IMG/VR virus record: IMGVR_UViG_3300025655_000033
Coordinates: 3,202 to 67,201 of that record
Direction: 5' to 3' (one strand)
Length of the DNA: 64,000 bases
From: a virus
Below are positions 592 to 33,773 of this stretch, one piece after another (position 1 is the first letter of the stretch; each line of letters starts with the position of its first letter). Both the position numbers and the translations under genes were made by a program. The notes under the pieces were generated by a model. That model was not told the DNA's origin and made no database searches. It was given only the letters and a program-made list of their open reading frames with translations.

Positions 592-1815
592 ATGGCAAAA
601 CCAAATAACGGTTTAATAACCGAAACTAATGGCCAATACTACGCTGGTTCTCAAAGTTTTACAACAACAAGTAGCCAAGCATCGTTTACCACTACGTTTA
701 ATACTGATTTAGTTTTTGGTGCTTATAGCCCTAATACATCAGACTACGGTTTAAATAACTTTGTGTTATATACTAGTGCGTCTGGACTACCTGGTACATT
801 TACAGAATACATATCTGCTTATACTGTTGTTGACAATGTTATAACTTTAGGAACTGCCTTACCTGCTAATAGTTATTTAGTAGTACAACTTAAAAGTAAC
901 AGTGGTGGAAACTATGGCAATGAAAATGCTTTTGGTGATGCTGTTGAAAATAACTATGGTGGATATGCTTACGTGACGTTGAATGATGTTATAAATAATT
1001 TCTTAGTAGCTTATGTTGGCGCTGGTAAATTAATATCTGATGTTAAAAGAACAGATGTTATATTTCACGCTAAAAGAGGTTTACAAGAGTTTAGTTATGA
1101 TACTTTAAAAAGTATTAAATCACAAGAATTATCTATACCTCCAAGCTTGAGTGTTATATTACCTCAAGACTATGTAAACTATGTTAAGATATCTTGGGTG
1201 GATCAATTAGGTGTTAAACATCAAATATTACCAACTCAACTTACAAGTAATCCTTATACGACACCACTTCAAGACAACGAAGGAGTTCCCATTCAAGATA
1301 ACTACGAAGAAAACTTACAAGGTTCTTCTCAAACAGAAGAAAGATGGGAAGTAGCAAATACCAGATTAATAAACAATATAGCTTCATTAGCGGATTATAA
1401 CAACGGATTAGATCCTAACAATCAATATTGGGACAATGGTAACTTTTATGGCAGAGCTTACGGCTTAGATCCACAAAATGCTAATATTAACGGTACTTTT
1501 ACTGTAAACGAAAGAGAAGGTAAAATATCTTTTTCAAGCGACTTAGTTAACAAGCTTATTATATTAGAATATATTTCTGACGGTTTAGCTTATGATATGG
1601 ACACGAAAGTTCCTAAAATGGCTGAAGAAGCTATGTACTTACATTTAGTGTATAGCATACTTGCTACAAAAGCAAATCAACCAGAATATGTAGTACAAAG
1701 ATTTAAAAGAGAAAGATCTGCAGCACTTAGAAATGCTAAAATAAGATTATCAAATATAAAGCTTAGTGAGATAGTTCAAGTAATGCGAGGTAAATCTAAG
1801 TGGATTAAACACTAA
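592..1815 (+). CDS. Tail tubular/ring structural protein
   Basis: 407 aa; 'LPQDYVNYVKISW' and 'ILEYISDG' motifs like podoviral tail tube A-type proteins; operon context. Confidence 0.55.
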   Translation: MAKPNNGLITETNGQYYAGSQSFTTTSSQASFTTTFNTDLVFGAYSPNTSDYGLNNFVLYTSASGLPGTFTEYISAYTVVDNVITLGTALPANSYLVVQLKSNSGGNYGNENAFGDAVENNYGGYAYVTLNDVINNFLVAYVGAGKLISDVKRTDVIFHAKRGLQEFSYDTLKSIKSQELSIPPSLSVILPQDYVNYVKISWVDQLGVKHQILPTQLTSNPYTTPLQDNEGVPIQDNYEENLQGSSQTEERWEVANTRLINNIASLADYNNGLDPNNQYWDNGNFYGRAYGLDPQNANINGTFTVNEREGKISFSSDLVNKLIILEYISDGLAYDMDTKVPKMAEEAMYLHLVYSILATKANQPEYVVQRFKRERSAALRNAKIRLSNIKLSEIVQVMRGKSKWIKH

Positions 1816-1819
1816 TTAA

Positions 1820-4800
1820 ATGGCTGAAATTAAAAATACTTTTATAAAAGCCAAGATGAACAAGGACCTGGATGACAGGTTAGTTCCTCCTGGAGAATAT
1901 AGAAATGCTCAAAATGTTTCAATAAGTAGATCTGAAGGTTCAGACGTAGGTGCTTTAGAAAACATATTGGGTAACTCTGTTATATCTTCAACTATATTAA
2001 ATACACCTAATATAGATGTTGTTGGTTTTTTAGCTGACAATGCTACAAATTATATATATTTATTTCTAAGTGATTACACGGATCCTTATACAGGTGGTAA
2101 ACCAACGTTTGCACCTATTGGATCTAATTGTATTATAGCTAGATATAATACTGTTTCTAACATATACACTAAATTAGTTCAAGGAAGGTTTTTAAACTTT
2201 TCTAAAAACAATCCTATAATTGGCGTAAACTTACTGGAGACGTTGTTATTTTGGACTGACAATAGAAATCAACCTAGAAAAATAAATGTAGAACTTGCTA
2301 ACCCAGGTAGAATAGCAATTCCAACTTATTACTTAACAGAAGATACTGTTTCTGTAGCAAAACCAGCGCCTTTAAAATCTATAAAACTAACCAACATAGC
2401 TCAAGGTTTACCGCTTCAGTCTACAATGACTAATCCAGCGCAAGAGTTTATGCCTGATGGCACAACTCCTAATCCAGACTATAGCGCTACATGGGCTGGT
2501 GATCCAAACTTTTTACAAGATAAATTTGTAAGATTTAGTTACAGATATAAATTTGATGATGGAGAGTATTCTATAATTGCTCCGTTTACGCAACCATGTT
2601 TTATACCTAAACAACAAGGTTATTTTTTGAACGGAGATCAAGATGAAGCCTATAGAAGTACTATAGTACAATTTGTTGAAAACAATGTAACACAAATAGG
2701 TCTAAATATACCTTTTGAAACAACATCACCAGGTAGTGATTTACATATAACTGACTTAGAAATACTATATAAAGAATCAGATGGTTTAGCTATAAAAGTA
2801 GTAGAGTCTGTTCCTATAAATAGTGTCTTAACAAAAATGCAATCAAATGTAGATAAAACTGTTTACGATTTTACTTATATATCTACAAAGCCTTATAAAA
2901 CTTTACCAGCTGATCAAACAACTAGAGTGTATGATATGGTACCAGTTAAAGCATTGGCTCAAGAGGTATCTGGTAATAGGGTTATGTATGGTAACTTCTA
3001 TGATAGAATGTCTCCTCCTAAATCAATAGACTACGGAGTTGGTTACTCAACTAAAGCTACAAGTAGTCAAGCTGAATATCCAAATCACACTGCTAAACAA
3101 AATAGAAACTACCAAGTTGGTATTGTATTATCTGATAAATTTGGTAGACAATCATCAGTTATATTATCTTCAAAAGATACTGCAAACGATGAAGAAGGTG
3201 TGCAGTACGGTGGGTCTACTATATATTTGCCTTACTACGAAGGAGCTTTAAGCGATATATTAAATTGGCCTGGTTACGCGCTTAGAGTGTTATTTAGTTC
3301 GCCAATACCATCTACTTCTAATATAGAAGGTTATCCTGGTTTATATAACGAAACAAATCCATTGGGATGGTACTCGTATAAGATAGTTGTAAGACAACAA
3401 GAACAAGATTATTACAATGTATTTTTACCAGGTATACTAAACGGTTATCCTAGTGGAACAACTAACTTTGGTACAGAAACAGGGCAGACGGCTAATGTTG
3501 TTTTGATAAATGACAATATAAATAAAATACCTAGGGACTTAACTGAAGTAGGACCAGATCAAAGACAATATAGAAGTAGTGTTCAAATATTTGGTAGAGT
3601 AACACCAGATCCTTTGAATTCTACATTAAATAAACAATATACGCCTGGTATACTTTCAGATACAGTTGTCTCTATATCTACAATAGCAGATACAAATTAC
3701 AATGAAACACAAGGTGTTAATTTGATATATCCTGAATTCTATCAAAGTGAAACAAATCCTTTAATAGGTAGAATAAGTACACAACAAAGTATTGGTACTT
3801 TAGGTAGCGCAAGTTACAGTATAACGCTTGGTGTTTATGAAACTTCACCAGTGGTTTCATTGTTAGATATATACTGGGAAACAAGTTCTACTGGATTAAT
3901 ATCTGAATTAAATACAGCTATAAACGAAGGGTTTGCTGGGCCTTATGTTATAAACTTAAATGGTGGGTATTCTCAAAACGAAGGTATGGTCACTGGAACT
4001 AAAGTGGTAACTGGTGCTTATACTGAAGATAGCGCTAATGTACCTATAACAACACTTGTTAATTTTAGTATTGCATCGGTTATAGATGGAAATGGAGTGA
4101 ATAGAACAAGTGAGTTTACATTATCTAAAACACTTAATTCAGCATATCAATTTGATATAGCTACAAATGCTTTGTTTTATTATGGAGATAACTCTTCTTT
4201 CGACGTGGCTAATAGATCTTTTACCTTTACAATAAACTGTCAAGACACTGTTGGAGGTACAACTGAGCAATTACAATTTACTGGGTCTGTTGCTAATATA
4301 GCTCCTAGTATAACTAATTGCCCTGCGTCACAAATACTATTAGAAGGATTAACTTCTCCTTGGGAAGTTTACACGATGCAAGGAAATAATGGATCAGCTT
4401 CTGGAGTTGATCAAACACAAGGATTAACTTGGAGTATACAAAGTGTTAGTTATAATGGAACGTTAATAGAAAATCAAGATCTATTTACAATAGATGAAAT
4501 ATCTGGGGTTATTAATCAGCCAAACGGCAATGCACAAAAAACAGGTAATTATCAATTAGTCATAGGGCTACAAGATGCTGGAGGATTAACTTCATCTAAT
4601 TGTGATCTTTATGTTTCTTTCGGAGTACCACAAGAAATTTCTTTAGAATTTTATTTAGAAACACCTTATGCAGACGATTGGAATGTTGAATGGATTACCA
4701 TTGATGGCACTAGACAACAATCGTTGCCTGGTCCTTGTAATTCTGGATGCGAAACAATTAACACTAGATCAGTGCCAAGTAATAACACGATGACAGCTAG

Positions 4801-5007: not shown

Positions 5008-6405
5008 ATGGCAGCAGCAATAGAAATATCTTACTTTAATTCGTTTTGGCTAAAACAGGTGCTTGATAGTGGAAGCAATCCTGTATGGCCAAATGGTTAT
5101 CCTTCTACAACTGGTTTTCCAGGAACTGCTGTTACTGGAGACAATAATTGGTTTATAGAAGAATCAAGAATTAGAGGAGGTTACAACAACACACAAGTGG
5201 ACTTAGGTGTTAAAGCTTACATAGTAGAAGAAGAACCTAGGCAACAACGTAGATCAAACGCTTTAATATATTCTGGTATATTTAACTCTAGAACAGGTGT
5301 TAATAATACTAATCAGTTTTCTGTAGGTGAATCTATAACTAAATCAACTGATCCAGCAAATGGATCAATTCAAAAGTTATATGCTGAAGATACAAACTTA
5401 ATAGTATTCCAAGAAAACAAAGTAAGTAGAGCTTTAATAGATAAAGACGCTATATACTCTGCTGAAGGAAACGCAGCTGTAACTTCAACTCAATTAGTTA
5501 TAGGGCAAATTGTTCCTTACGCTGGTAACTATGGTATTAGTAGAAACCCAGAAAGCTTTGCTGTCTATGGTTATCAAAAGTACTTTACAGATAAAGATAG
5601 AAACGCTGTTTTAAGACTCTCTATGGATGGTTTAACAGAAATATCATCTTATGGTATGCTTGATTATTTTAGAGACAATCTAAGCAGTATAGGAGAGTCA
5701 GGTAAAATAATAGGTGGTTATGATATTCATAATAAAAACTATACTTTATCTTTACAGAAAACACCAGCTTGGCAAGGTAATTCAGACGATGCTTCATCTT
5801 ACGCTACTTTAACTTTTGATGAATTAGTTAAAGGTTGGAGTAGTTTTTACACCTATAAACCTACTTTTGTAACAAGTCTTAAAAACAAATTTTATAGTTT
5901 TAAAAATGGATCTATATACGAACACTATAGTAATCCAGGTGGAGATAATAGAGGTACTTTTTACGGATTATACGCTCCTTCAAATATAACTTTTGTATTT
6001 AATGATAATTCAAATGTTTCAAAAAATTTCCAAACTGTAAACTACGAAGGTGATAATGGATGGCAAGTAACTAGTTTCGTGTCTGACAATCAAAGATTTG
6101 ATTACGTTAATAGTGGTTGGGTTAGTTATGATGATACAACAGCTCAAATACCAAGTTACAGTCAAACATATAATGATGGTGGAGTTATTTATAGATTAGG
6201 CTTTGATAGAAAAGAAAACAAGTACTTTGCAAACTTAATAAATAATAGTCCAGCTAGAGATGGTGAGGTTGTATGGGGTAATGAAATGTCTGGTATTAAA
6301 GGGTATTTTGCTACTGTTACTTTTTCAACTGACGCTATAACTGACGTAGGTGGTCCAAAAGAACTTTGGAGTGTTGGATCAAATTTTGTAGTATCTTCGT
6401 ATTAA
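5008..6405 (+). CDS. Tail nozzle/stabilisation protein, C-terminal part
   Basis: 465 aa; 'YGISRNPESFA..G..KYFTD..R.AVLRLS.DGLTEIS' beta-propeller motifs of P22 gp10/crAss nozzle type. Confidence 0.6.
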   Translation: MAAAIEISYFNSFWLKQVLDSGSNPVWPNGYPSTTGFPGTAVTGDNNWFIEESRIRGGYNNTQVDLGVKAYIVEEEPRQQRRSNALIYSGIFNSRTGVNNTNQFSVGESITKSTDPANGSIQKLYAEDTNLIVFQENKVSRALIDKDAIYSAEGNAAVTSTQLVIGQIVPYAGNYGISRNPESFAVYGYQKYFTDKDRNAVLRLSMDGLTEISSYGMLDYFRDNLSSIGESGKIIGGYDIHNKNYTLSLQKTPAWQGNSDDASSYATLTFDELVKGWSSFYTYKPTFVTSLKNKFYSFKNGSIYEHYSNPGGDNRGTFYGLYAPSNITFVFNDNSNVSKNFQTVNYEGDNGWQVTSFVSDNQRFDYVNSGWVSYDDTTAQIPSYSQTYNDGGVIYRLGFDRKENKYFANLINNSPARDGEVVWGNEMSGIKGYFATVTFSTDAITDVGGPKELWSVGSNFVVSSY

Positions 6406-9114: not shown

Positions 9115-12100
9115 ATGAATCAAATCTATATCAACCCAGAAACTGGTGAAAAATTTAGTGTTAGTTCTGAAAAATTAGATCAGTTCTTACAAGACTTTCC
9201 TAACGCTGTTTTAGAACAAGAACAAGAGCAACCAGAAGAAGTTGTTACTGAAATGTTTGTTAATCCAGACACTGAAGAGCAATTTAAGGTTAGTGTAAAT
9301 AAAAAAGATCAGTTCTTAAAAGATTTTCCTAACGCTATTCCAATTGATCAAGCGGGAAAGGAAACATCCCCAACTCTGGATGCGGTTGCGGGAAAAGACA
9401 AAGCATCCGATATGGATTTACCATTGGAGGATGGTTTATCGGAATTGAAAGAAGATGATGGCCAATGGGATTGGGGTATAGTAGATTATTTTTCTGATTT
9501 AGCTAGAGCAGCTAAAGAAGGTTGGAGACAAGGTGAACTTGCTGATGATGCTTTTGAAGTTATAAATAAAGGAGCTGATGTAGAATCTAAAGATATTTTA
9601 AAGTTTCTTAAAAGACAAAAAGAAGTTGGTGCTAAAAACATAGGATCAGATGAAATGCGGTCTTGGCAAAAAACTTATGATAAAAATGGTAAAAGTACTT
9701 GGGGTGCTATAAAAGGTATATTAGAAAATCCATCTGTATTAAGCACCTTATTAGTTAGTTCTTTGTCATCACAGTTGAGTGCTATAGTAAACTCAGGTGA
9801 AGTATTAGCTTCTGGTGTTGCAGGTGCAGCCGCTGGAGCTGGAGCTGGTGCAGCTGCTGGAGCAATTGGAGGTCCATTAGCTACTTTAACAGCCGCAGGT
9901 GGTGCATTAACAGGTGCTATGACTGGTAGTATGGCAGCTATGGAAACTGGATTAACTTTTGGTGAATTACTTCAAGAACAAGTTGGAGACGATCTTAATG
10001 ACGATGCAATAAAAGAATTTTTAAATGATCCAGAAAGATTAGCTGATCTAAAAAACAAAGCACTTAAAAGAGGTTTAACTATTGGAGCTATAGAAGGTTT
10101 AACAATGGGTGTTGCTAAAGGTGTTGGTAGCAAGTTAGCTAAAGCTGGATTTAAAAAGATGGCTATAGGTACAGCCACTGGAGTCATAGAGGCTGGTGGT
10201 GGTTCTCTTGGAGAAGTAGGTGGAAGATATGTAGCAGGTCAAGAAATGGATCCTGGTGAAATAGTATTTGAAGGTGTTGCTGGATTTGGAGGAGCTCCAC
10301 TAACATTAGCTTCTCAGGCTAGTAAGCTTAGTAAAACTATAGATAAAGCTACTATAAACAAAATAATAAAAGATACTGATTACAAAGATGTAACAGATGC
10401 TTTTAAAACAGCTGATGTTGGTGAAGCTGAAATCAATATTGCTAAAATTAAAAACTCTACTAAAATATTAGATGAACAAGTAGACTCTAAGGTTGAATCA
10501 GCTGATATAACAGAAGAAGAGGGTAATGAAATAAAACTTAATTTTAGAAAAACTCAACAAGCTGTAAACAAAATAAGTTCATTAAATTTTCCTAAAGAAG
10601 AAGAAGTTAATGCCGTTAGTCTATTAAAAGAAAAAGAAACACTAGAAAACAAAATAAAAGAAGTTGGTGATTCTAGTTTAACTACTATTGAGTCTGATAG
10701 AGTTGATGAAATAAACAAATCATTAAGTGGAATTAGATTAAAACAAAGTATTTCTTTTGCTGAAAAACAAGGTAAAAAACTTGGTTTAGATGTTGAAGTT
10801 TTATCTCAAGAAGAATATGATAAAAAATTCGGTGATAAAGCTAAAGGATCAGAAGGAGTATGGGATAAAAAAAATAATTCTATAACAATCAATAAAGATA
10901 GAGCTTTAGAGGTTGAAGCTGTATCTGTTGGTAGTCACGAACTATTACATGGTATTTTATCTAAAGGTTTAAAAGGTAAAGATGCTTCAAAAATAGTAGA
11001 GGATTTTAAAAACATATTAAGCGAAGAACAAAAAGCAGTTGTAGATAAAAGAATTAAAGAAAACTATACACAAGATTATTTAGATAAAAATCCAGATGAG
11101 TATTTAACTGTTTTTTCAGATGCAATAACTAAAAAAGAAATTAAATTTGAAGAAAACTTATTTACAAAAATAGGTGATTTTATAACTCCAATACTTAGAT
11201 CCGTAGGATTTAAAAATATAAAATTTAACACTGGTAAAGATGTTTACAATTTCATGCGTGAATATCAAAAAAGCGTTGCAACTGGAGAACTAAGTAAGGA
11301 TATAATAAAATCTGTTGAGTTAAAAGATACTGAAGCTTCAGAAGGATTAGCTACATCTATTACAGATAATCTTAATGAGAAAGTTGATAATCTTGTAGGA
11401 AAAAAAGATGAATCAGGAAATTATCAGTATAAAAGTAAAACAGAATTTCAATCATCACCTGAGTTTGTAAACGTATATGATAAAATAATTAGTGGAAAAA
11501 TGATTGATCCATTAATTAGAAGAGGCATAGAAGGTGATCAAGTTTATGGCAAACCAGTTGAAAACTTTATTGAAGAAGTTAAAGATGGTTTGACAGAGGT
11601 TTTAATGCGTTTTGATCCAACTGAAAATAATAGTTTAATTGGATTTATAAACAGTCAATTAAAATTTAGAAAAGGTGACGTGCTTAAAAAATATAAAGCG
11701 CAACAAACTAAATCAATTGATACAGCAGCTGGTGAAGTAGGATCTATAGCTGAATTAGAAGCTGAAGATACATCCGAAGCTTTACTAGAAGAGTCTATGG
11801 CTGAAGAAAGACGTCAAAGTGATCTTATAAAGGCAGAGGAAATAATCGGTTCAGATGATTTTGTTAAAGCAGCTAAAGAAGAAGTTGCTAGTAAATTAGA
11901 TCAAGTTAAACCTGGAGAATCAACTTTTAAAAATGTAAAAGGATTAGTTGCAGATACATTAGCTAAAGAAATAGGTATACCAGCTAAGAAAATAATGGAC
12001 ACTACTGCTAACATGTCTAGTCAAGAGATGGGTGTGTCTATAAATTGGATTAAACAAAACGCCAATATGATTGCTAAAATAATGCCACAAGGCGCTGTTT

Positions 12101-20019: not shown

Positions 20020-20816
20020 TACAATGTTTGTTTTACAAAAGTTCCATTAATCATTTTACCTTTTCTACTTTTAATAACATTGTAAGCAGAATCAACACAA
20101 TCTTCTATTTTAAGGTTTTCAAGCTTAGCTAGATTAGTTAATACAACCACTATATCACCAATAGCATCTATAATCTCTGGTTTATCATTGTTAAGCAAAG
20201 CTTTAGCAAGTTCACCAGTTTCTTCAAGTAGTTTTATATATTGTGTTTTGCTGTCACCTTTAGTGTATATACCTTTTTCAGCGGCCCACAATCTAATAAG
20301 ATCATATATATTTTTTTCAATACCATTCACAAGACCTTCGTGTAAGCCTGGTTCAGCTACAAAAGCTTCATGAAAAGCCTTGTTATATACAAAACACCTG
20401 TCTTTATCATACATAGATGTTACTGAGTTGTGAGCTAACCAATTTAATTCTTTTTTTGACTTTAATTCAAAATCACCAAAAGAAGTTTCCCATTTAAAAC
20501 CAATACCAAGTTCTTTTTTAAGAAATTTCTTTAAATCAATTAATGGTACTGGAAAAGTTGTTGTTTGTTCTGTTACGTTTAATTTCATTTTATTTGATTT
20601 TTTATTCATTAGATCTCTATATGTTTGTCTATCAACCTTATAGCCATAAGACTTTTGAAGTTCTATCTCCTTAGATGATATATAACTTATATCTTCACTT
20701 GAATCAAGAACTTCGTACTCACCTGGTTTATACCCTTGGGCAACCGTAACTCTTCTATCAAGATCACGTGTAACCCCTATTTTTTTACCCGGGATATGGT
20801 ATAAATAGTACATCAT
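20019..20816 (-). CDS. MazG-like NTP pyrophosphohydrolase with N-terminal GIY-YIG-like region
   Basis: C-term 'KLLEETGELAKA...EIIDAIGDIVVVL' MazG motif; N-term 'YYLYHIPGKKIGVTRDLDRR'. Confidence 0.8.
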   Translation of the reverse strand: MMYYLYHIPGKKIGVTRDLDRRVTVAQGYKPGEYEVLDSSEDISYISSKEIELQKSYGYKVDRQTYRDLMNKKSNKMKLNVTEQTTTFPVPLIDLKKFLKKELGIGFKWETSFGDFELKSKKELNWLAHNSVTSMYDKDRCFVYNKAFHEAFVAEPGLHEGLVNGIEKNIYDLIRLWAAEKGIYTKGDSKTQYIKLLEETGELAKALLNNDKPEIIDAIGDIVVVLTNLAKLENLKIEDCVDSAYNVIKSRKGKMINGTFVKQTL

Positions 20817-21484
20817 AATTTGTTGTTATATAAGTGTAAGTTGTGTGCGTGATGGTAATAAGTACCAACTGGCAAACTAAGCTCTCTAGCAACCAATTGT
20901 TGTAACATTGAAAAACAATATTGATCATTACAGAAACCATACCAGAGGTCATTAGAACGCATATAGACAGACATATTTAATCTATTGTCTAATATCGTAA
21001 ATTGAACAGCATAAGTACAAGGCGTATCGTTTTGATAAGTGTTATGTTCTTTTGCATCGTAAATAGAAATCGCAGCTTGACGCGTTGATGCGTTAGAACG
21101 CAAAGCGTGTATAGCATAATCGAGCTGGCCGTTTCTATTCCACTGCCAACCATAGTTAGATCTAACATTACCGTTATCATCTTGCATTTTCTCCCATATA
21201 GGAGGAACTTTACCGTATATCTCTTTGAGTTTATTTAAACTAGGATCTCCAGATAAATACCATTGCCACTCTGCTGCTGCGTAAGCTTCGTTAAAGTTTC
21301 TTTCTTTATTTGCTATTGAAATATTTTTAGGATATTCCATAGTAAAGCCTACATTGAATAAAGCTTTTGTACCAGCAAACTCAACACCATCTGTCCTTAT
21401 TTTTTGATTAAAGTAATCAAATGCTTCTGATGCGTTCTTAAAATTTGTTTTTATATTTTCCATAATAATAAAGATAATACTCAA
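20813..21484 (-). CDS. Thymidylate synthase-fold enzyme, probable dCMP hydroxymethylase/methylase
   Basis: 'DTPCT', 'MRSNDLWYGFCND', 'NLHLY'; Asp at the substrate-specificity position; start may be MENIKTNF. Confidence 0.8.
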   Translation of the reverse strand: MSIIFIIMENIKTNFKNASEAFDYFNQKIRTDGVEFAGTKALFNVGFTMEYPKNISIANKERNFNEAYAAAEWQWYLSGDPSLNKLKEIYGKVPPIWEKMQDDNGNVRSNYGWQWNRNGQLDYAIHALRSNASTRQAAISIYDAKEHNTYQNDTPCTYAVQFTILDNRLNMSVYMRSNDLWYGFCNDQYCFSMLQQLVARELSLPVGTYYHHAHNLHLYNNKL

Positions 21485-25109: not shown

Positions 25110-25874
25110 CTACAGATAGTCAATTACTTGCGATGGTTCTACGTTAGCAATTAACTTCTCTACAGCTTGCTTTTTAATCTCAGATATTCTAACGTAAGCA
25201 CTAGGTCCTTCGATGCCTAAAATATCTGCAATTTGATTTGCTGAATGCTTATCACAGTTTAATCCATAACTTAATCTAAGCACTTCAAACTCTCTTTCGT
25301 TTAAATGTTTTTTCAATAAACTAGTTAAGTATAAGTTTAATAAACCTATATTATATGGTTCAGACTGATCAGGTATTTGATGCATGGTGTTATCTTCATC
25401 ATCATCATTTATTTGCTCGTCAATACTAAGGAATATAGAATTAAAAAACATTGCAACCATTTTCTTATCTTTACCATTGTCTTTCCTAATTTCATTTAGT
25501 TTATGCTCTGGTATTCTAATATCTCCCCTGTTTATGTCTATGGCTCTTCTAATGGCTCCTTTTATTCGTTTAGACAGGAAAGACTTTAATGTTTTTTCCT
25601 CGTCTTCTGAGTTGTCTATTGTGTCCCATATTATTTTGTCAACAGCCTTAATCAATCCTAAACTTCCGTCTTGTATTAAATCTGTAATGTCCATAACACC
25701 GGAAGCTTGTTGTGATGTTGAAAACTTCCTTGCTATGTTTTCTACTAAAGGCAAGAACTTAATTACAAGTTCGTCTCTAGTATACTCGTTAAATGATTTT
25801 TCGCCGACACGTTCAATTGAAGACTTTACATCTTCTTTATATCGTACGTAATTCTGAATGTTGTACTTTTTCAT
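25110..25874 (-). CDS. Phage-encoded sigma-70 family RNA polymerase sigma factor
   Basis: Region 2 'LPLVENIARKF...DLIQDGSLGLIKAVDK...RIKGAIRRAI', 'IRIP', 'LSID', region 4 'LNEREFEVLRLSYGL...IADILG...VRISEIKKQAVEKL'. Confidence 0.9.
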   Translation of the reverse strand: MKKYNIQNYVRYKEDVKSSIERVGEKSFNEYTRDELVIKFLPLVENIARKFSTSQQASGVMDITDLIQDGSLGLIKAVDKIIWDTIDNSEDEEKTLKSFLSKRIKGAIRRAIDINRGDIRIPEHKLNEIRKDNGKDKKMVAMFFNSIFLSIDEQINDDDEDNTMHQIPDQSEPYNIGLLNLYLTSLLKKHLNEREFEVLRLSYGLNCDKHSANQIADILGIEGPSAYVRISEIKKQAVEKLIANVEPSQVIDYL

Positions 25875-26490
25875 ATCCGTTGTTTAATAGTTCCTTCTCT
25901 TTTTTGAGTTCATTGGTCATATTACGGTATATGGTTCTTGGTGTACAATTCAATTGTTTAGCTAAATTAGCTACTGTTATTTTATCACCGCAGTCGTTTA
26001 TATATAACATAACATCGTAGATGTCTGACTCGGTAATTTTTTTACTTCTTCCTACAAGTTGTCCTACAATACTTAGTTTATCTGACAAATCTAGTTTACA
26101 GTTATAATTAAATATAACTTTACGGGTCTTATTAGATGGATCTTGCTCTAAATCGCACATGCTTATTTCATACACGATTTTATTTAGTAAGTCATCATTT
26201 ACAGTAAATGTAACAAATCCATTTTTAATATTGCATATAAATTTAGATAAATTTAAAAAATTATCAGGATCAAGTTTTGGATTAAGATACCATAGAACTA
26301 ATAGATGCCACTTTAAAGACTTGTATGTATTGATCTTAGCTTTACTTCTAAATAGATCATAACACTCTCTGGTACCCTGTTCATAAAACCAACCCCACTC
26401 ATAAGTTGAAGTTGGTTTATCTTTAACTGGTAACCTTCTGTAAAGTATTCTGCTTCGATGTAAATAATCGAGACGACGTTCGTATGACAT
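25837..26490 (-). CDS. DNA-binding protein with C-terminal helix-turn-helix (candidate regulator or replication initiator)
   Basis: 'ITVANLAKQLNCTPRTIYRNM' HTH; start codon lies inside a dyad element. Confidence 0.65.
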   Translation of the reverse strand: MSYERRLDYLHRSRILYRRLPVKDKPTSTYEWGWFYEQGTRECYDLFRSKAKINTYKSLKWHLLVLWYLNPKLDPDNFLNLSKFICNIKNGFVTFTVNDDLLNKIVYEISMCDLEQDPSNKTRKVIFNYNCKLDLSDKLSIVGQLVGRSKKITESDIYDVMLYINDCGDKITVANLAKQLNCTPRTIYRNMTNELKKEKELLNNGYEKVQHSELRTI

Positions 26491-27493: not shown

Positions 27494-27687
27494 TTGTTTT
27501 TATTTTGTTAAAAAAAGATGAAACTTTATATATTGTTGTTTTCATAAAAATTCTATTATAACATTTTTGTTATAGTCTTTTAATATTCTTTCAACTGCCG
27601 CATCTTGCACGTGATCAGCAACGACACCGTTAATTAAATAATCGTTAGTGTCGCTGCCGTCAATTATACGCATTGTGTATAGCATAA

Positions 27688-27978
27688 TTACTTTTTAAGA
27701 TCATTAAGCTTTTTAACAACTTTATTTATCTTGTTGTTTAATATAGCTGCTTTACTATAGTCTTCGTCTTGTTCATAACGTGACAATAGCTCATTAAGTC
27801 TTTTAAGTTCTATCTCTAACAACTCTTGTTCAGATATAACATACTGACCACTAATTTCAGCATCGTCACCTAATGTTTCTTGCATGTTGTCAATAAACTG
27901 TTTATCAAACTCTTCTTGACGAGCATATATTTTGTCTACTATAATGTCAGCTAATTGATTCATTTCTTGTTCAGTCAT
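27688..27978 (-). CDS. Hypothetical protein with UVR-like C-terminal coiled coil
   Basis: 'EDYSKAAILNNKI' UvrB/C-like motif. Confidence 0.6.
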   Translation of the reverse strand: MTEQEMNQLADIIVDKIYARQEEFDKQFIDNMQETLGDDAEISGQYVISEQELLEIELKRLNELLSRYEQDEDYSKAAILNNKINKVVKKLNDLKK

Positions 27979-28460: not shown

Positions 28461-28934
28461 CTAGCTTATTGCGTATTGATTTTGTAATTTGTATCTATTG
28501 TTTTCTACAGTATTTTTAGAAATATGCTTAGCGCTTATGTCTTCTTTCTTTTGTTCAAGTACAGCTATAGTATTTTTTAATTCTAATATTCTATCATTTA
28601 TCTCGTTGATAGTTTTAACTTCTTGAACCTCAGATACATATATGTTTTCTACTTTTCTGTATAATTCCTCTATATCTCTTTCGTATGGTAATTCATGTTC
28701 AAAGTTTTTTACACTGTGCAATACAGTTGCATGATCTTGACCCATACTTTTAGCTATTGCAGAACAACCTGCCGTAGAATAATCCATACATAATTTATAG
28801 TAAACCCAACGTAGCATTTTGTATTCACGCTTACGTGTATTTACTTTGTATGAGTACTCACCAGCTTCGTCTAGTATTTTATAGTAGAAGTAGTTTAGTA
28901 TTTTTTTATTTGATGGTGTGATTCTTGGTGTCAT
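28461..28934 (-). CDS. DnaA C-terminal (domain IV)-like DNA-binding protein
   Basis: 'R...Y.L..DY...SAIAKSMGQDHATVLHSVK' matches the DnaA domain IV signature (RDHTTVLHA). Confidence 0.75.
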   Translation of the reverse strand: MTPRITPSNKKILNYFYYKILDEAGEYSYKVNTRKREYKMLRWVYYKLCMDYSTAGCSAIAKSMGQDHATVLHSVKNFEHELPYERDIEELYRKVENIYVSEVQEVKTINEINDRILELKNTIAVLEQKKEDISAKHISKNTVENNRYKLQNQYAIS

Positions 28935-29207: not shown

Positions 29208-29555
29208 TTAAAATTTGTGTGACATTTGATTATTTACATACCACTCATTCCATAAGTATTCCCAACTGTCGCTGTCGTCGTCTAATTCGCATGCGTCAAG
29301 TATGTATTGATCAACATATATATCAGATCCTAAATTAATAGCGGATTCAATTTCAGATTGGAGCATAGCAGCTTCCAAGTATATATCTCTATCAGGTATA
29401 ATATTACCCCAATCAGCTTGATCCATAGCTACATATATATCATGACCGTCTGCTGTCATTATTGATTCAAAAGATACATCATATCCAACTCCACCGTGCT
29501 CGGTATCAATTGTTGATCCTGATTTTTCAAGTACTAGTTTTTTGTAATGTGACAT
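29208..29555 (-). CDS. Acidic hypothetical protein
   Basis: 115 aa, Asp/Glu-rich. Confidence 0.6.
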   Translation of the reverse strand: MSHYKKLVLEKSGSTIDTEHGGVGYDVSFESIMTADGHDIYVAMDQADWGNIIPDRDIYLEAAMLQSEIESAINLGSDIYVDQYILDACELDDDSDSWEYLWNEWYVNNQMSHKF

Positions 29556-29658
29556 AATTTAAAATATTAAGTTAAACATTGATTTAAATACTACAAACAC
29601 AAGTAGTATTACATTCATAATTATCCAGGCCATTATTATTTTTTCTATTGGTCTCATA

Positions 29659-30264
29659 TTAATGGTATATTAGTCCGACTTTATTAGTCTTATTAAACCA
29701 TCTGGTTGCATATAGATCATTCTCAGATGCATTAGCATAACCAGCAGCAACTAATTCGTCTGCGGTTTTAAAGATCTCTGTATGACGATCTATGGACTTG
29801 TCTATAAGATCGACTTGCTTGCCTGAATTGCTAAATATAAAGTCATAGTTATTAGGTATATCGGCTTTTTTAACCATGTCGATCATATTGGTATAACTAT
29901 AAAAATTTACTTGTGGATTTTGCTTTGCAATTTGAAACCACTTAGCTAAATACTCACGTGAATAATAATCACCGCTGTCGTGCACTCGTACAAACTTAGG
30001 TTTTTTGCGCTGTATCTCGGCGTGTATAGCACTTATGAAGTCGTCTGTTTTACTGAGCTCATAACGTTTCTCGAACGCAGGCTTAACATTACCCCATATG
30101 TACGCGCCTTTACGCGCATAACAGAACTTAATACAACCATCTGCCATAGGACAAATAACTCTACCTGTTATACTTTTGTAAGCTGGTAGGCCAAAGTTAA
30201 CTACTTTAACACCCATAAGCTTGCTAGTCTTTTTTAATTTACCGTTTTGTGTTAATAACTGCAT
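29659..30264 (-). CDS. Gp88-like radical-SAM-related phage protein
   Basis: 'CPMADGCIKFCYA' Cys cluster, 'VRVHDSGDYY', 'FYSYT'. Confidence 0.75.
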   Translation of the reverse strand: MQLLTQNGKLKKTSKLMGVKVVNFGLPAYKSITGRVICPMADGCIKFCYARKGAYIWGNVKPAFEKRYELSKTDDFISAIHAEIQRKKPKFVRVHDSGDYYSREYLAKWFQIAKQNPQVNFYSYTNMIDMVKKADIPNNYDFIFSNSGKQVDLIDKSIDRHTEIFKTADELVAAGYANASENDLYATRWFNKTNKVGLIYH

Positions 30265-30584
30265 AATACTTCTTGTAACTTATTTGTTAATTCATCTATA
30301 AAATCAGATGGCTCTGTTTTACCGCCGATACTCCATGTTGTTAGATCTTTTTTAGTATAGCTTTCACTGTATGTTTTCCAATCGTACAATGTATACATAT
30401 TATCATTGAACTCAAATACCCATTCGTATTGAACTTTGCCATCACCTGAATCATCTGGTGAATAAGTTGGTGCGCCAAAGACAAGTATTAGATCATTGTA
30501 GTAGTAGCCGTGTAATGAACCTACTTTGTGAGTGCCATGTGTTGCTGATCTCCAGTCGGATTCGTGTTTAGTTAGTTTTTTCAT
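30252..30584 (-). CDS. Hypothetical phage protein
   Basis: 110 aa; 'FG.P....DGKV..EW...TLYDWK...WSIGG'. Confidence 0.65.
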   Translation of the reverse strand: MKKLTKHESDWRSATHGTHKVGSLHGYYYNDLILVFGAPTYSPDDSGDGKVQYEWVFEFNDNMYTLYDWKTYSESYTKKDLTTWSIGGKTEPSDFIDELTNKLQEVLCSY

Positions 30585-30585
30585 G

Positions 30586-30774
30586 TTACCAAGTTTTAGT
30601 TAAATGTGTGTTATAGTATTGCTTTAATGTTTTGTTGAATAAATCCATTGCAGCATTGTCTGTTTCTTTGATTAAATCTTTATCGTAAAGCATTTCTAAT
30701 AACTGCTCGCTAACAAAGTCACATGTTAACTCATAAAGATCACTAGATAATTCTTGATACAGTTGCTTGTTCAT
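30586..30774 (-). CDS. Hypothetical early protein
   Basis: 62 aa ORF directly downstream of a promoter motif. Confidence 0.6.
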   Translation of the reverse strand: MNKQLYQELSSDLYELTCDFVSEQLLEMLYDKDLIKETDNAAMDLFNKTLKQYYNTHLTKTW

Positions 30775-30815
30775 AGTTATAATATTTAATTGTTATACAT
30801 ATATTATCGTTAGTG

Positions 30816-31046
30816 CTACGTATTATTTTTGCAATACTTTTCTTCATAAGCTAATAAGTATTCAATTTGCTCTTTAATATCACGGAACTTTCTTTTTACC
30901 TGATAGATCAATGGACCTTGGTGGTATGGATTGTCTTGATTAGTTTTAAATCTTACGTACTTGGTTTTAGGGTAGATACCTGCCCATTTACCGTTTGATA
31001 GTGTTACGTATATATTACCTTTTTTTGTTACTTTAGTTATTTCCAT
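30816..31046 (-). CDS. Hypothetical early protein
   Basis: 76 aa ORF. Confidence 0.6.
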   Translation of the reverse strand: MEITKVTKKGNIYVTLSNGKWAGIYPKTKYVRFKTNQDNPYHQGPLIYQVKRKFRDIKEQIEYLLAYEEKYCKNNT

Positions 31047-31300
31047 AATTATTTTATCTTGTTTTTGCGTGTGTATAGCACTTGTAATAGATCTGAAGCT
31101 TTATACATATCTAACTTTTCGTTAGTGTCTCGCTTGTGATCTACTAGTAAATGCAAGCCATCTATTAATGAGTCTAGTTGTTCTGAGTTAAAAAATAAGT
31201 TCATCTTCGTCTTCGTTATAAAATTCAGCGTGTTCTTTGCAGTCGGAGCAAATATCCGTTTCAAACCATGGCGATGCGCCACAACAGTTACTTTCCATAA

Positions 31301-31600
31301 TTAATCTTTTAAATATTTACGTAATTCTCTATCTTCTACTTGTAATAAGAAATCCCACAATAAATTATAAAAATCTTCCATATTATCCCATTCACATTCG
31401 TCGTGGATAAAATTCCACTTATCAGATAATGGTACGCCAACATATCTTTCTATAGTTTCTTTATCAAAGTGAAAATCATATGTTATCTTTAGGTATATAT
31501 CTCTTAACACTTCGTCAGCGTCATTGAAGGATAACCATTTTAATAAATGTCTTTTTAATATTTTTCGTTCTTCGTTATTTAATAAAATTTCTTTAGTCAT
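31301..31600 (-). CDS. Hypothetical early protein
   Basis: 99 aa ORF downstream of promoter motif at 31629. Confidence 0.6.
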   Translation of the reverse strand: MTKEILLNNEERKILKRHLLKWLSFNDADEVLRDIYLKITYDFHFDKETIERYVGVPLSDKWNFIHDECEWDNMEDFYNLLWDFLLQVEDRELRKYLKD

Positions 31601-31925
31601 AATTATATTGTTTTAATTATTATACATATATTATCTTAGGTGCTACGTATTATTATTGTAAATTAGCAAGGATCATTTCTACTAGAAAATATGCGCCTGA
31701 TATTATAGCTGAGGTTGCAGCGACAAATAGTACGCATGACCACGTGTATAGCATAGCGTTAGTTATCTTATTCTTCATCTTGTATTTCTTTTATTATATC
31801 TGTTAATTCTTCTAAGTTATTTAAATGGTAGTGTGAATGGTATTCATCACCTAGTTTAATAGTGGTATCTATTAAGTCATTATACTCTGATCCAGTGAAC
31901 CAGATTTCTATGTTTAATTTCTTTG

Positions 31926-32195
31926 TTAACATGACGCCCAACCTATAAAGTGATATTTATCTTCTGTTTCAAAGTACACACACTCGCGTTTGCTTATTTT
32001 ATCTAAAGCATCATCGTAGTGCTCATCGCTTTCGGGTTCTTTAATTTCGCCTGATAAACTGCATGTAGCTATAGTGCCAGAGTAAGGATCGTGGCCATAC
32101 TCATATACTGCGTCTTCTACTAGTTCTCTAAACGCTTGCTTTGCGCTTTCATAATTCTTTTTTAATACTGATTGGTGAAAGGATGTTGCTCCCAT
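31926..32195 (-). CDS. Hypothetical early protein
   Basis: 89 aa; 'YEYGHDPYSGTIAT', 'FIGWASC'. Confidence 0.65.
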   Translation of the reverse strand: MGATSFHQSVLKKNYESAKQAFRELVEDAVYEYGHDPYSGTIATCSLSGEIKEPESDEHYDDALDKISKRECVYFETEDKYHFIGWASC

Positions 32196-32214
32196 AGTTA
32201 TATTATTTTAAGTG

Positions 32215-32376
32215 TTAGAAATAATCTTGTCTAATAAAGTTATTAATTATATTGTGTACTTTAATTTGATTAGTTAAAGCTAATGAGTTAAACTCTTCAT
32301 CGTGTTTCCAATTCTTTAAGTCGCTTTTATCTTGCCACTTAGTGTAAATCTTGCGTGCGATTTCTTGATTTGTCAT
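32215..32376 (-). CDS. Hypothetical early protein
   Basis: ORF from MTNQEIARK with TAACT-ATG start context. Confidence 0.5.
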   Translation of the reverse strand: MTNQEIARKIYTKWQDKSDLKNWKHDEEFNSLALTNQIKVHNIINNFIRQDYF

Positions 32377-32383
32377 AGTTATA

Positions 32384-32560
32384 TTATTTAGTATTGTTAT
32401 CAAGTGCTCCGTTATAAAATTCTTCTTCAAGTATATTAACTATTGCTTCCATAGCTAATACTGCTTCGTATGGCGTAGCATAAGGTGTATTCTCATACGC
32501 TATAGCTACTTTACCTATAGATTCTATTATTTGTTCTTCAGTCATAGGACACTGTCTCAT
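32384..32560 (-). CDS. Hypothetical 58-aa early protein
   Basis: Hand-translated MRQCPMTEEQIIESIGK... Confidence 0.5.
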   Translation of the reverse strand: MRQCPMTEEQIIESIGKVAIAYENTPYATPYEAVLAMEAIVNILEEEFYNGALDNNTK

Positions 32561-32718
32561 AGTTTATTTATTTTATTAGATAAAGCGTATGCATCTAGTG
32601 CTTGCTCTATAATATTTATAATTTCTAATTTACTTGCATTATTTTCTTGTGCTTTATATAATATATAGCGTATATCACTGATTAATTCTTCAGTTTCTGT
32701 AAGATTTTTAGTGGACAT
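32557..32718 (-). CDS. Hypothetical 53-aa early protein
   Basis: Hand-translated MSTKNLTETEELISDIRY...; ATGA coupling. Confidence 0.5.
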   Translation of the reverse strand: MSTKNLTETEELISDIRYILYKAQENNASKLEIINIIEQALDAYALSNKINKL

Positions 32719-32720
32719 AG

Positions 32721-32924
32721 TTATTTAATGTATGTTAGTGATAAAAATGCGGCGGATATAAAGGTTAAGCCATTGTAGTTAAACCACTCGCGAACTGCAG
32801 AATCTTTTGCTACTTCGGCGAAATTATTAGGTAAGTTAGATACAGTGAAACCTATGTAACGCTTGCGATTTGAGCGTATTAGAGGTAATTTAGAGATTTT
32901 AGTAGTTTTAATAGTTAAAGACAT
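32721..32924 (-). CDS. Hypothetical early protein
   Basis: 67 aa ORF downstream of promoter motif at 32962. Confidence 0.55.
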   Translation of the reverse strand: MSLTIKTTKISKLPLIRSNRKRYIGFTVSNLPNNFAEVAKDSAVREWFNYNGLTFISAAFLSLTYIK

Positions 32925-33087
32925 AGTTATATATTTTAAGTTATTAATTAATGTATATTTATATTATCAATACTATAACGTATTATTATTGTAATGAAGG
33001 TGGTTTATTATTTATTAATAGAGAAGGGTAGAGGGATATAATACTCTGTCTCTCTACGCAGAGATATAATTCTCCTTACAGAAAAGT

Positions 33088-33131
33088 GTGACATTAGCTA
33101 GTTAAATAGTAGGGTAACAGGCTATTGTCAC
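33088..33131. promoter_or_regulatory. Dyad element copy 2
   Basis: GTGACATTAGCTAGTTAAATAGTAGGGTAACAGGCTATTGTCAC. Confidence 0.75.
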
Positions 33132-33238
33132 CCCTTTAATTTGTCTAGTGATTTCTCTAATTCCATTATATATTCCACTAACTCGTTTTTATCCCACTCC
33201 ATTAGTGCTGAGTATTCGCTTAAGATCATTGCTTGCAT
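33128..33238 (-). CDS. 36-aa early peptide
   Basis: MQAMILSEYSALMEWDKNELVEYIMELEKSLDKLKG, ~20 nt downstream of promoter motif at 33259. Confidence 0.5.
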   Translation of the reverse strand: MQAMILSEYSALMEWDKNELVEYIMELEKSLDKLKG

Positions 33239-33308
33239 AATTATTTATTTTATATATATATTATCTTATGGTGTACGTATTATTTTTGTTGAGCGCAAGT
33301 GTATAGCA

Positions 33309-33539
33309 TTAAGAGATAATTTCCCTTAACGCTACTGGAACACTTGTTGAAGAAGTATAGCTTTTATATTTAATAAAGCAAGGCATCACTTCGAGTTTCG
33401 CTTGCATAATTTTATACGCTTCGTCGTGATTGTAAGTTACTTCTTTTCCACTTTTGAATTTCACTTTAATAATAGTGTTAGAGCCAATAAGTGATTTTCT
33501 AATTAAGAATCTTTTTGAGTTTAAAGTTGAATTTTGCAT
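33309..33539 (-). CDS. Early protein, paralog 1
   Basis: 76 aa, close paralog of 34040..34282. Confidence 0.75.
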   Translation of the reverse strand: MQNSTLNSKRFLIRKSLIGSNTIIKVKFKSGKEVTYNHDEAYKIMQAKLEVMPCFIKYKSYTSSTSVPVALREIIS

Positions 33540-33773
33540 AGTTATTTAATTTAAGTTATTAATTATTATTTTTTAGTTACATATATATTATCTTGTAGCG
33601 AACGTATTATTTTTGTCGAGCGTAGCGAAGTGCTATACACGCCTGGCTGCGTTAACTATATTGCATGACGGAGTCTACTCTTCCGACGCTATTTCAAAGT
33701 CAGGCCTTATATATTATCTTAGTAGCAGCGTATTACTTTTGTAATCAAACGCTCCTGTAGAGTTTGTGAGGTC

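Follow-up and report, generated by a model that had tools for sequence, protein, structure and literature searches.

Single-strand interruptions in phage DNA have been known from T5 since the 1960s and later from a few Pseudomonas podophages, and their purpose is still described as open in the report on phage tf of Pseudomonas putida (PMC3517423). According to that report, tf has 14 nicks in the consensus TACT^RTGMC, all of them in the top strand, which were proven by sequencing stops, gels, and ligase (PMC3517423). The early and late blocks of the tf genome converge; 11 of the 14 nicks lie in its early half, and sites are found both within and between genes (PMC3517423; HE611333). In the tf record HE611333, we counted 14 copies of the consensus in the top strand and none in the bottom strand. 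The T5 consensus described there, R^GCGCRGG, is less strict, and uncut occurrences are present on the opposite strand as well; the phiKMV-type sites are long and few, about four per genome (PMC3517423).

The window analyzed here, a 64-kb stretch of viral DNA, carries a 10-letter word, TGCTATACAC, which is probably recognized by a DNA nicking system that is directed by the phage and specific for site and strand. Such sites would most likely be of one kind with the localized single-strand interruptions ('sci') known from T5, from the phiKMV-like phages, and from tf, a LUZ24-like phage. Both tf and this phage have genomes of podovirus type in which the early and late blocks converge, and in each a short asymmetric consensus is present in many copies, with few near-miss variants. 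In both, the sites lie within and between genes, with early genes carrying them on the sense strand and late genes on the antisense strand, and they are densest in the early half; relatives of this phage, like tf and the LUZ24-like phages, keep similar positions with different site numbers. The cut, which is a prediction here, would follow the fourth letter in both cases (TACT^RTGMC in tf and TGCT^ATACAC in this phage), and six of nine aligned letters agree in our own comparison. In contrast, tf belongs to another lineage with a host of another phylum, has no BLAST-level protein in common with this phage, and uses a word of 9 instead of 10 letters. Its sites are all in the top strand, whereas about one fifth of the copies here are on the other strand, with tandem arrays upstream of early promoters; the nicks of tf are described as proven, whereas those of this phage are inferred from contig ends. 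T5, BF23, and the phiKMV-like phages resemble this phage in having programmed, strand-specific interruptions (predicted here) at consensus sites that are densest in one part of the genome (PMC3517423).

Occurrence of the word in the window

The initial annotation had listed eight copies of the 10-mer GTGTATAGCA, which is TGCTATACAC read on the other strand; the latter is used below as the motif-strand form. The window was found to contain exactly these eight copies (Table 1), with GTGTATAGCA on the + strand at the first seven positions and on the - strand at 33631, and there was no extra copy in the 3,201 genome bases outside the window. A chance expectation well under one copy, as had been estimated from composition, was also borne out by the k-mer counts: 100 dinucleotide shuffles gave a mean of 0.15 copies and a maximum of 2, and Markov models of order 1-5 gave 0.11-0.21 copies for both strands, that is, about 0.2 against the eight observed. 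Among all 10-mers seen at least five times in the 67.2-kb genome, GTGTATAGCA had the highest ratio of observed to expected copies. Only three one-mismatch variants were found against 5.7 expected, indicating that the word is sharply defined. The 16-mer GGCGTGTATAGCACTT common to the 30022 and 33631 copies proved to be real, as did the distribution described before, with copies both inside and between genes, a density that rises toward 33 kb, and a strand flip there. With respect to the leftward early/replication genes, TGCTATACAC is in the sense orientation. In the window it behaves as a short asymmetric consensus with few near misses, and it is far above chance in the window as well as in the relatives.

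Table 1 Copies of TGCTATACAC in the window and the interruptions predicted at them.
Feature	Position	Strand of TGCTATACAC	Context	Predicted nick
Motif copy	1648..1657	-	Antisense in + strand late gene 592..1815 (virion structural protein, phrog_13977)	- strand, 1654/1653
Motif copy	21107..21116	-	Sense strand of ThyA-like gene 20813..21484, codons Y-A-I-H	- strand, 21113/21112
Motif copy	27675..27684	-	Intergenic, 3 nt past stop codon of 27688..27978	- strand, 27681/27680
Motif copy	30022..30031	-	Sense strand of GP88-family gene 29659..30264, codons S-A-I-H	- strand, 30028/30027
Motif copy	31071..31080	-	Near 3' end of ORF 31049..31282, 24 nt ahead of ATG 31046	- strand, 31077/31076
Motif copy	31744..31753	-	Intergenic, about 90 nt upstream of early promoter 31625-31656	- strand, 31750/31749
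Motif copy	33299..33308	-	Abuts stop codon of p76 (33309..33539), 9 nt ahead of early promoter 33255-33289	- strand, 33305/33304
Flipped copy	33631..33640	+	Non-coding, between early promoters, 14 nt upstream of promoter block 33557-33616	+ strand, 33634/33635

Conservation and selection among relatives

The word was present in 28 of 29 IMG/VR loci, and the five complete relatives contained 3, 5, 15, 13, and 7 copies, respectively, against 0-1 copies of a reversed control word. A further 80 metagenome loci contained 210 sense and 25 flipped copies. The word is family-wide in a large family of uncultured aquatic, Flavobacteriia-type podophages. A megablast search of the early region against phage records gave no match. 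In about 60 independent site groups, no flank was conserved except A or G at position -1. Codon alignments showed that the ten letters are invariant while neighboring synonymous sites vary, and that residues are altered to suit the word (for example, GQCYTL versus GQSYEL). Moreover, the word occurs in all three reading frames, and its position shifts within the GP88 gene, which in relatives has the copy at two other places or has none; in some relatives, the corresponding segment of the ThyA-like protein contains a flipped copy, displaced by a few codons. These alignments show that selection acts on the DNA letters of the word themselves, with a strength that determines residues of several proteins. 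Our literature search found no paper on nick sites under selection dictating amino acids, and the matches listed in a search with the letters of the word were unrelated primer or siRNA sequences. One complete relative (G001) has kept only three copies and no flipped copy; when its low count was compared with the presence and absence of genes, no candidate gene emerged.

Strand and placement of the sites

Inside early genes, the site groups showed a sense bias of 32:1; 32 of the 42 sense site groups were inside ORFs, and only 1 of these 32 was in the last 30% of its ORF. In eight related records, seven of the eight late-gene copies shared the physical strand of the early copies and were thus antisense, as is the 1648..1657 copy of the window. 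The sites thus followed a physical-strand rule: 51 of the 64 copies in these records and seven of the eight in the window kept to one strand, even in oppositely transcribed genes. The exceptions were mostly flipped arrays in the non-coding control region, which are tandem, partly degenerate, spaced at 12-15 bp, and situated beside early promoters; at the place equivalent to 33631, relatives have arrays of two to five such copies. The tandem flipped arrays upstream of early promoters are beyond what simple nicking explains.

Since most copies are co-oriented with transcription and no other flank is conserved, the word could be a stand-alone promoter for the phage sigma factor (25110..25874), with sense copies driving middle genes and flipped copies firing toward the late genes. 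The word resembles the consensus of the extended -10 element (TGnTATAnn), and the sigma factor (Sigma70_r2/r4, phrog_351) is conserved in 22 of the 29 loci and a neighboring HTH protein in 25. However, the intragenic copies are not ahead of gene starts, as the near absence of site groups from the ends of ORFs indicates, and no copy precedes the late genes of about 45 kb, in which the copies are antisense as described above; sites serving a sigma factor would be sense and upstream of the genes served, including the late ones. The array spacing and the lack of a flipped copy in G001 also speak against promoters, no MotA-box or -35/-10 partner element was found near the word, and promoter function leaves unexplained the DNA ends inside the word in DNA assemblies that are described below. 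We therefore consider this reading unlikely.

Contig ends inside the word

We counted the hexamers in which 160 ends of related contigs (131 metagenome and 29 IMG/VR) terminate. The hexamer was GTGTAT at seven of these ends, where 0.079 would be expected by chance (P 3.6e-12, Bonferroni 1.5e-8), and no other terminal hexamer was significantly enriched in this set. Two further ends were found in L081, with a shift of one base, and in L220, which belongs to a second set of 59 ends. Of all GTGTAT hexamers in these loci, only 34% are part of the word. All five ends that could be checked against orthologous contigs fall at full copies of it; three of the nine (L121, the start of L123, and L131) could not be compared with an ortholog. 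All nine site-assigned ends retain the ATACAC side, as would be expected if the 5' end on the motif strand were fixed at TGCT^ATACAC. For sense sites, hits were found among the upstream ends (7 of 86) but not among the downstream ends (0 of 74; Fisher p 0.015), with a similar site density on both sides. Such one-sided ends would be the expected product of end-repair if only the 5' end were fixed, to judge from the action of T4 polymerase in end-repair. In the assemblies, the DNA ends thus lie at one fixed position in the consensus and on one strand; as ends of assembled contigs, which may break for other reasons, they are indirect evidence and are silent on how often a site is cut.

Several ends could be placed individually. 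Metagenome contig L081, whose GP88 is 99% identical, starts TATACACGTGG exactly at the 31744..31753 site, where L082 and the window have the full word. The IMG/VR contig behind L008 terminates inside the flipped copy of the ThyA-like gene, and the contig behind L220 terminates ...GGGTGTAT inside an array of flipped copies. Furthermore, a Logan contig piece covers 32834-33304 of the window, and its start is the predicted 5' base A33304. Three other ends, those of L086 (4 letters), L120 (TGCTAT), and L123 (its end, GTGTA), were set aside as chance matches, the orthologues having no word there. The retained end GTGTAT(A) has seven letters in common with the Tn5 mosaic end; a Tn5 trimming artefact is nevertheless an unlikely source of the ends, because the preceding letters differ at all eight ends and the ends track the word, not the hexamer. 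A scan with the tf primase, as a control on known nicked phages, gave only four loci and too few ends.

Ends at a fixed place would also be produced if the word were cut on both strands, as a packaging/terminase or homing-type double-strand cleavage site with true duplex ends, and TGCTAT ends (L120 and a piece at 31075) together with ATACAC starts would fit a filled-in 2-nt 5' overhang. This reading, which we hold to be about as improbable as promoter function, is opposed by the absence of hits among the downstream ends at sense sites and by the dismissal of the L120 end as a chance match. Nor do the sites look like a genome terminus: ends occur at four or more different loci per genome, and intact copies lie in the interior of hundreds of contigs.

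Binding of DnaA and other functions of the word

The initial annotation had favored the view that the sites are targets of the phage DnaA-domain-IV-like protein (28461..28934) or of host DnaA; in this reading, the sites would govern replication or early transcription. The match of the protein to PF08299 (E 9.6e-6) stays below the curated cut-off, and the protein keeps DHATVLHS, which aligns to DHTTVIHA of Aquifex DnaA. The substring CTATACAC that had been likened to a DnaA box is present, and TATACAC of the word matches the seven-letter core of the nine-letter DnaA box, TTATNCACA. In addition, the flipped arrays in non-coding DNA adjoin promoters. However, the gene is missing in all five complete relatives that keep the word (3-15 copies), none of which has a match to PF08299 or to a profile of the window's protein. 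It was found only in the genome of the window, in a 93% relative (L001), and weakly in L010, L024, and L025, and is absent from most loci; conversely, Cellulophaga phage phi10:1 has a DnaA-IV-like gene and no copy of the word. Judging from these gene contents, the gene appears to be dispensable for keeping the word. The box itself is not conserved at full length either. Across about 60 site groups, C always occupies the first box position and the word is followed by A in only 25%, whereas the TG outside the box never varies. Binding alone would leave unexplained the sense bias inside early genes, the strand rule in late genes, and the DNA ends inside the word, as DnaA binding does not break DNA, and in metagenome-assembled genomes (MAGs) of possible host groups the word is at background level. 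A plausible reading of the word is hence corrected here as wrong in all probability. The other explanation that the initial annotation had offered, programmed nicks as in T5, is the one favored by the contig ends at a fixed place in the word, their one-sided pattern, and the physical-strand rule.

An action of the word in RNA, as a processing site of early mRNA or as the target of an antisense RNA from the flipped copy (10-16 nt complement), would agree with the sense bias inside early genes, with the complementarity of the 33631 and 30022 copies over 16 nt, and with two contig pieces from RNA-labelled runs that end inside copies. This is very unlikely, given that late-region copies are mostly antisense and that contigs from DNA metagenomes and IMG/VR show this break as well; RNA-labelled runs may also contain DNA, and scans of the window for Rfam families and tRNAs gave no match. 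Least probable of all is a borrowed host-type polar DNA word (Chi-like signal, uptake sequence, or translocase-guiding sequence), for which the strand bias pointing away from the control region and the copies in variable protein segments in all frames, where uptake sequences sit, can be cited, but which is at odds with the confinement of the word to about 13-19 kb of the phage genome and with its control level (e.g., 3 vs 2 and 2 vs 2) outside phage or phage-like contigs in five Flavobacteriaceae/Bacteroidota MAGs (1.7-4.6 Mb; not proven hosts), a level that suggests a phage-specific word.

Proposed nicking system

In the nicking system that we propose, the strand with TGCTATACAC would be cut between letters 4 and 5, leaving a fixed 5' end at A5. 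For the window, seven - strand interruptions are predicted, of which six would be on the sense (non-template) strand of the early/replication genes and one in a late gene, and one more is predicted on the + strand in the non-coding early control region. We infer that the break in the virion DNA is a nick that ligase could seal and that it is made by a phage enzyme. A search of about 60 ORFs for this nickase detected no HNH or GIY-YIG domain, and the only nucleases were a RecE-like exonuclease, a DUF1064 protein, and TerL. The p76 protein gave only weak matches to PD-(D/E)XK nucleases (Z 2-3.4); its fold was predicted with confidence (pLDDT 88.5), but a Foldseek search of the PDB was negative at E <= 0.001, the VIA-wide comparison gave Z <= 3.4, and the Atlas search gave only unnamed viral clusters. 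The predicted fold of GP88 was of low confidence (pLDDT 58.5) and had no match, and the relatives of GP88 are mostly mycobacteriophage proteins with no assigned function. The nicking enzyme of tf likewise has no name in the available part of its description (PMC3517423).

That selection on the sites dictates amino acids argues that the nicks do something useful. Our preferred guess is that nicks about 1 kb apart, in the region that enters and is transcribed first, would ease the handling of DNA in packaging or entry by acting as a swivel or flexible joint; the nicked strand would be the one in which nicks cannot stop RNA polymerase reading the early genes. More speculatively, the nicks may not be a by-product but have a role in the infection programme itself. 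Selection would keep them on the non-template strand of the genes that enter first, as swivels for host RNA polymerase that transcribes, and perhaps pulls in, DNA still anchored in the capsid at its far end. The opposite-strand copies in the control region might then be a nick-primed two-way replication start, for which the 3'-OH ends at 33305 (-) and 33634 (+) would point apart, or template-strand insulators between tandem early promoters. We regard this extended scheme as doubtful. A virion RNA polymerase was considered and rejected: a homologue of the crAss-type muzzle is present, but neither a DFDxD motif nor a match in PDB or Pfam was found for the 2084-aa protein.

The nicking system would extend programmed nicks, with a new consensus word, to an abundant group of uncultured aquatic phages of a different host phylum. 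Sites of this kind might be sought cheaply and without culture, as one over-represented word at contig or read ends; if the infection-programme reading were true, programmed nicks in uncultured phages could be mapped from the ends of metagenome contigs. The 24 sequencing runs in this study were represented by assembled contigs throughout, and the four that were placed on the window gave two suggestive piece ends, uncovered stretches being uninformative. One contig piece, from an RNA-labelled run, which may contain DNA, stops at 31075 within the 31071..31080 copy; it is a weak hint, and its end on the TGCT side (TGCTAT) speaks against the proposed cut.

Enrichment and placement of the 10-mer

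An exact count over the whole window gave eight copies of the 10-mer GTGTATAGCA, in agreement with the initial annotation in number and in every coordinate. That annotation had also estimated well under one copy by chance, and the estimate held: dinucleotide shuffles gave a mean of 0.15 copies (maximum 2), and Markov backgrounds of orders 1-5 expected 0.11-0.21 copies versus the eight observed. The observed/expected ratio of the word was the highest among all 10-mers with at least five occurrences. One-mismatch variants numbered only 3 versus 5.7 expected, indicating that the word is sharply defined. No further copy was present in the bases of the virus record (67,201 bases) outside the window (bases 3202-67201). 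Four DNA sequencing runs contained 0.90-0.95 of the words sampled from this phage. Read as TGCTATACAC, the motif strand, six copies fall on the coding strand of the genes that run leftward, the copy at 1648 is antisense inside a late gene, and the copy at 33631, which is flipped relative to the early-gene direction, is located in non-coding DNA between early promoters.

Conservation of the word in related phages

Scanning with the GP88 protein gathered 29 related IMG/VR loci, in 28 of which the word was present, at 1-12 copies per locus and predominantly in the early orientation. Five complete relatives had 3, 5, 15, 13, and 7 copies, as against 0-1 copies of the reversed control word, and 80 metagenome loci had 210 sense and 25 flipped copies. 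When 118 distinct flanks were clustered into about 60 independent site groups, the sole conserved flanking position was an A or G directly 5' of the word.

In codon alignments of orthologues, the ten letters were fixed while adjacent synonymous positions varied, and the word was found in all three reading frames. The encoded residues matched the word, being GQCYTL or GECYTL in word-bearing lineages and GQSYEL, GESFNL, or GAEAEL where the word was absent; within the GP88 gene, the word occupied three different places depending on the lineage. It follows from these alignments that the target of selection is the nucleic acid, not a peptide. Variation among relatives was tolerated at letters 9-10 (CAT, CGC, CAG), chiefly in flipped tandem arrays.

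A contig of 117,301 bases binned in a Flavobacteriaceae MAG (G006:C7, containing loci L074-L077) covers a related phage over more than a single genome length. Its motif copies recur with a period of about 62.6 kb, so that the contig resembles a concatemer or else a circular assembly traversed twice.

DNA ends inside the word

The IMG/VR contig behind the related locus L008 breaks off partway through a copy, its last bases being ...CTTGTGTAT. In a set of 160 ends, each read towards the end (131 from 80 GP88-carrying metagenome contigs and 29 from IMG/VR), the terminal hexamer GTGTAT occurred at seven versus 0.079 expected (P 3.6e-12; 1.5e-8 after correction for 4,096 hexamers), and no other terminal hexamer was enriched. 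Copies of the word account for just 34% of the GTGTAT hexamers in these loci; hence, the hexamer alone is not the cause of the ends. Locus L081, whose GP88 is 99% identical to that of the window, starts TATACAC..., one base earlier, at the window's 31744 site, and a second set of 59 ends from IMG/VR loci anchored on p76, a small early protein, added L220, which ends within a flipped array. At least four distinct positions in the genome are involved, and the ends come from nine assemblies with different names. The full word was present in the orthologue for all five ends having one (L081, L096, L112, L115, and L008); no orthologous contigs were found for the ends of L121, L123 (start), and L131. 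Shorter or opposite-side matches at L086, L120, and the end of L123 proved to be chance by orthologue comparison and were dropped.

The ATACAC part, on the 3' side of the motif strand, was retained at all nine ends. At sense sites, 7 of 86 upstream ends start at a copy and none of 74 downstream ends stop there (Fisher p 0.015), the density of complete copies being alike on both sides (0.29 upstream and 0.23 downstream per kb). End-repair fills in or trims back to each strand's 5' end; consequently, a fixed 5' end on one strand with a ragged partner would give a sharp end on one side only. From this standard library chemistry, the one-sided ends fit nicking of the motif strand at TGCT^ATACAC and speak against cleavage of both strands at the word. 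In the window, 5' ends are accordingly predicted at - strand positions 1653, 21112, 27680, 30027, 31076, 31749, and 33304 and at + strand position 33635. Programmed nick sites as in T5, which the initial annotation had listed as an alternative, thus gain support from the fixed one-sided ends and from the strand rule described below. Among Logan contig pieces, both weak evidence, a start at 33304 is the predicted 5' base and agrees with the nick, and an end at 31075, on the TGCT side, disagrees with it.

Weighing of the DnaA, promoter, and host readings

The main reading of the initial annotation, in which the word is the target of the phage DnaA-domain-IV-like protein or of host DnaA, was not supported. 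The phage protein does contain a stretch, DHATVLHS, that can be aligned with DHTTVIHA in the DnaA of Aquifex. Searches by tblastn, phmmer, and a five-homologue profile nevertheless located this protein only in the window, its 93% relative L001, and the loci L010, L024, and L025. PF08299 at E <= 1 matched the window's own genome and none of the five complete relatives, and a profile of the window's protein likewise matched none, so that the gene is missing from all five complete relatives retaining the word. In addition, a DnaA-domain gene is annotated in Cellulophaga phage phi10:1, which has zero copies of the word. Given these gene contents, the word cannot depend on the phage protein. A role for host DnaA, on which the gene contents of the phages have no bearing, is unlikely, and it would leave both the strand rules and the DNA ends unexplained.

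If the word were a promoter for downstream genes, it would be expected towards the ends of preceding ORFs; the pattern was the opposite, since sense-copy site groups in related loci numbered 32 in ORFs and 10 in intergenic DNA, and only 1 of the 32 lay in the last 30% of its ORF. The early promoters are a separate, well-defined element, TTACAA-N17-TAAGAT followed by AATATATRTAAC, and in several units a conserved A/T-rich leader (TAATAACTTAAA..ATAACT) and an ATG come next. Bacteroidota promoters are of the -33/-7 type; unlike these, the element looks sigma-70-like. Flipped copies of the word are almost all non-coding, 30-60 nt upstream of the -10-like box of the early promoters. In eight records, 7 of 8 late-gene copies were antisense to the gene yet shared the physical strand of the early copies; the placement rule of the word is thus one of physical DNA strand and not of direction of reading. 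A host word appears unlikely: in five MAGs of possible host groups (1.7-4.6 Mb, found via phage-like RNR loci) the copies were confined to phage-like contigs and were at control level elsewhere.

Comparison with phage tf and other nicked phages

The nicked Pseudomonas putida phage tf is described in PMC3517423 and in the annotated record HE611333. Its 14 proven nicks, at TACT^RTGMC, are confined to the top strand, and our own count in HE611333 gave 14 consensus copies on the top strand and none on the bottom. Of the 14 nicks, 11 are placed in the early half of a genome with convergent early and late blocks; sites are both intragenic and intergenic, matching the sense strand of early genes and the antisense strand of late ones; and near-miss variants are few. 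The paper also reports 8-9 sites each at similar positions in LUZ24, PaP3, and MR299-2, the T5 consensus R^GCGCRGG, and nicks in phiKMV-like phages, and calls their function unknown. With tf as thus described, the present phage agrees point by point, down to a predicted cut that likewise follows letter four, the nicks here being deduced from contig ends. The two differ in lineage, sharing no BLAST-level homologues, and in the word itself; moreover, the present phages have opposite-strand tandem arrays at the early control region. Among the papers listed in the literature library searched, none concerned sites of this kind in Flavobacteriia-type phages.

Candidate proteins and working model

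Pfam and PHROG scans of about 60 ORFs detected no HNH or GIY-YIG nuclease. Members of the p76 family occur in 17 of the 29 loci. A phage has 1-3 of these genes, invariably within the early control region and in many cases immediately downstream of flipped motif arrays. AlphaFold modelled p76 confidently (pLDDT 88.5), with no convincing match to a known fold in the PDB. With modest confidence, we propose that the nicks would fall on the non-template strand of the first-transcribed region, where they could facilitate packaging, entry, or transcription and yet leave RNA polymerase unobstructed.

Genome layout and neighbouring elements

The - strand block (about 15.9-34.4 kb) includes the small early genes, and a block of virion genes on the + strand makes up the remainder of the window.

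Table. Copies of the word, genes, and elements in the window.
Feature	Position	Strand	Remarks
GTGTATAGCA	1648, 21107, 27675, 30022, 31071, 31744, 33299	+
GTGTATAGCA	33631	-	flipped
crAss-type muzzle homologue	5008-6405	+	PF25729/PF25731
2084-aa protein	9115-15369	+	downstream of muzzle homologue
ThyA-like protein, 223 aa	20813-21484	-	short, divergent; adjoins MazG-like gene
Sigma factor, regions 2 and 4	25110-25874	-	nearest PDB match FliA
217-aa protein, C-terminal HTH	25837-26490	-	end overlapped by sigma factor gene
DnaA-domain-IV-like protein	28461-28934	-	PF08299, E 9.6e-6, below curated cut-off
GP88-family protein	29659-30264	-	PF17338; 28/29 loci
p76 family, two paralogues, 76-80 aa	33309-33539, 34040-34282	-	no Pfam or PHROG family
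Erf, RecE-like exonuclease	- strand block	-
Primase-helicase	- strand block	-	nearest named kin Cellulophaga and Flavobacterium phages, <=43% identity
Ribonucleotide reductase	- strand block	-
TerL, portal	virion block	+
GroEL-like chaperonin	50778-52334	+	phrog_5725, E 3e-133; within late block
Early-promoter-like unit, nine copies	30798-34447 (near 30798, 31625, 32958, 33255, 33582, 33708, 33967, 34328, 34413)	-
46-nt element, two copies	33085-33130, 34732-34777		inverted arms GTGACA(T/A)TAGC ... GCTATTGTCAC
About 19-nt element GACGGAGTCTACTCTTCCG	33660-33690		CGGA..TCCG arms
Non-coding region	34450-34830		between divergent early and late blocks
Two tandem 31-bp repeats	34652-34713		within non-coding region

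In GP88, three cysteines (Cys38, Cys44, and Cys48) and a RVHDSGDYYS stretch are invariant. Its fold was modelled with low confidence, and most of its kin from named phages are mycobacteriophage proteins whose function is unknown. The sigma factor and the 217-aa HTH protein are both conserved family-wide, and a search for their promoters found none. Relatives carry either the short ThyA-like form or a longer, canonical-looking ThyA, and a role of the ThyA-like protein in base modification is possible. The 2084-aa protein had no PDB or Pfam match and lacks DFDxD, a motif of crAss-like virion RNA polymerases.

The non-coding region between the divergent blocks also contains a GGGGATCCC palindrome and is a candidate genome end or origin. 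The second copy of the 46-nt element is directly upstream of the first + strand gene, and in relatives this element, which could be an operator or hairpin, adjoins motif copies. The CGGA..TCCG element is conserved beside motif copies in many relatives (L001, L004, L007, L009, L011, and L013), on either side of the word and at varying distance.
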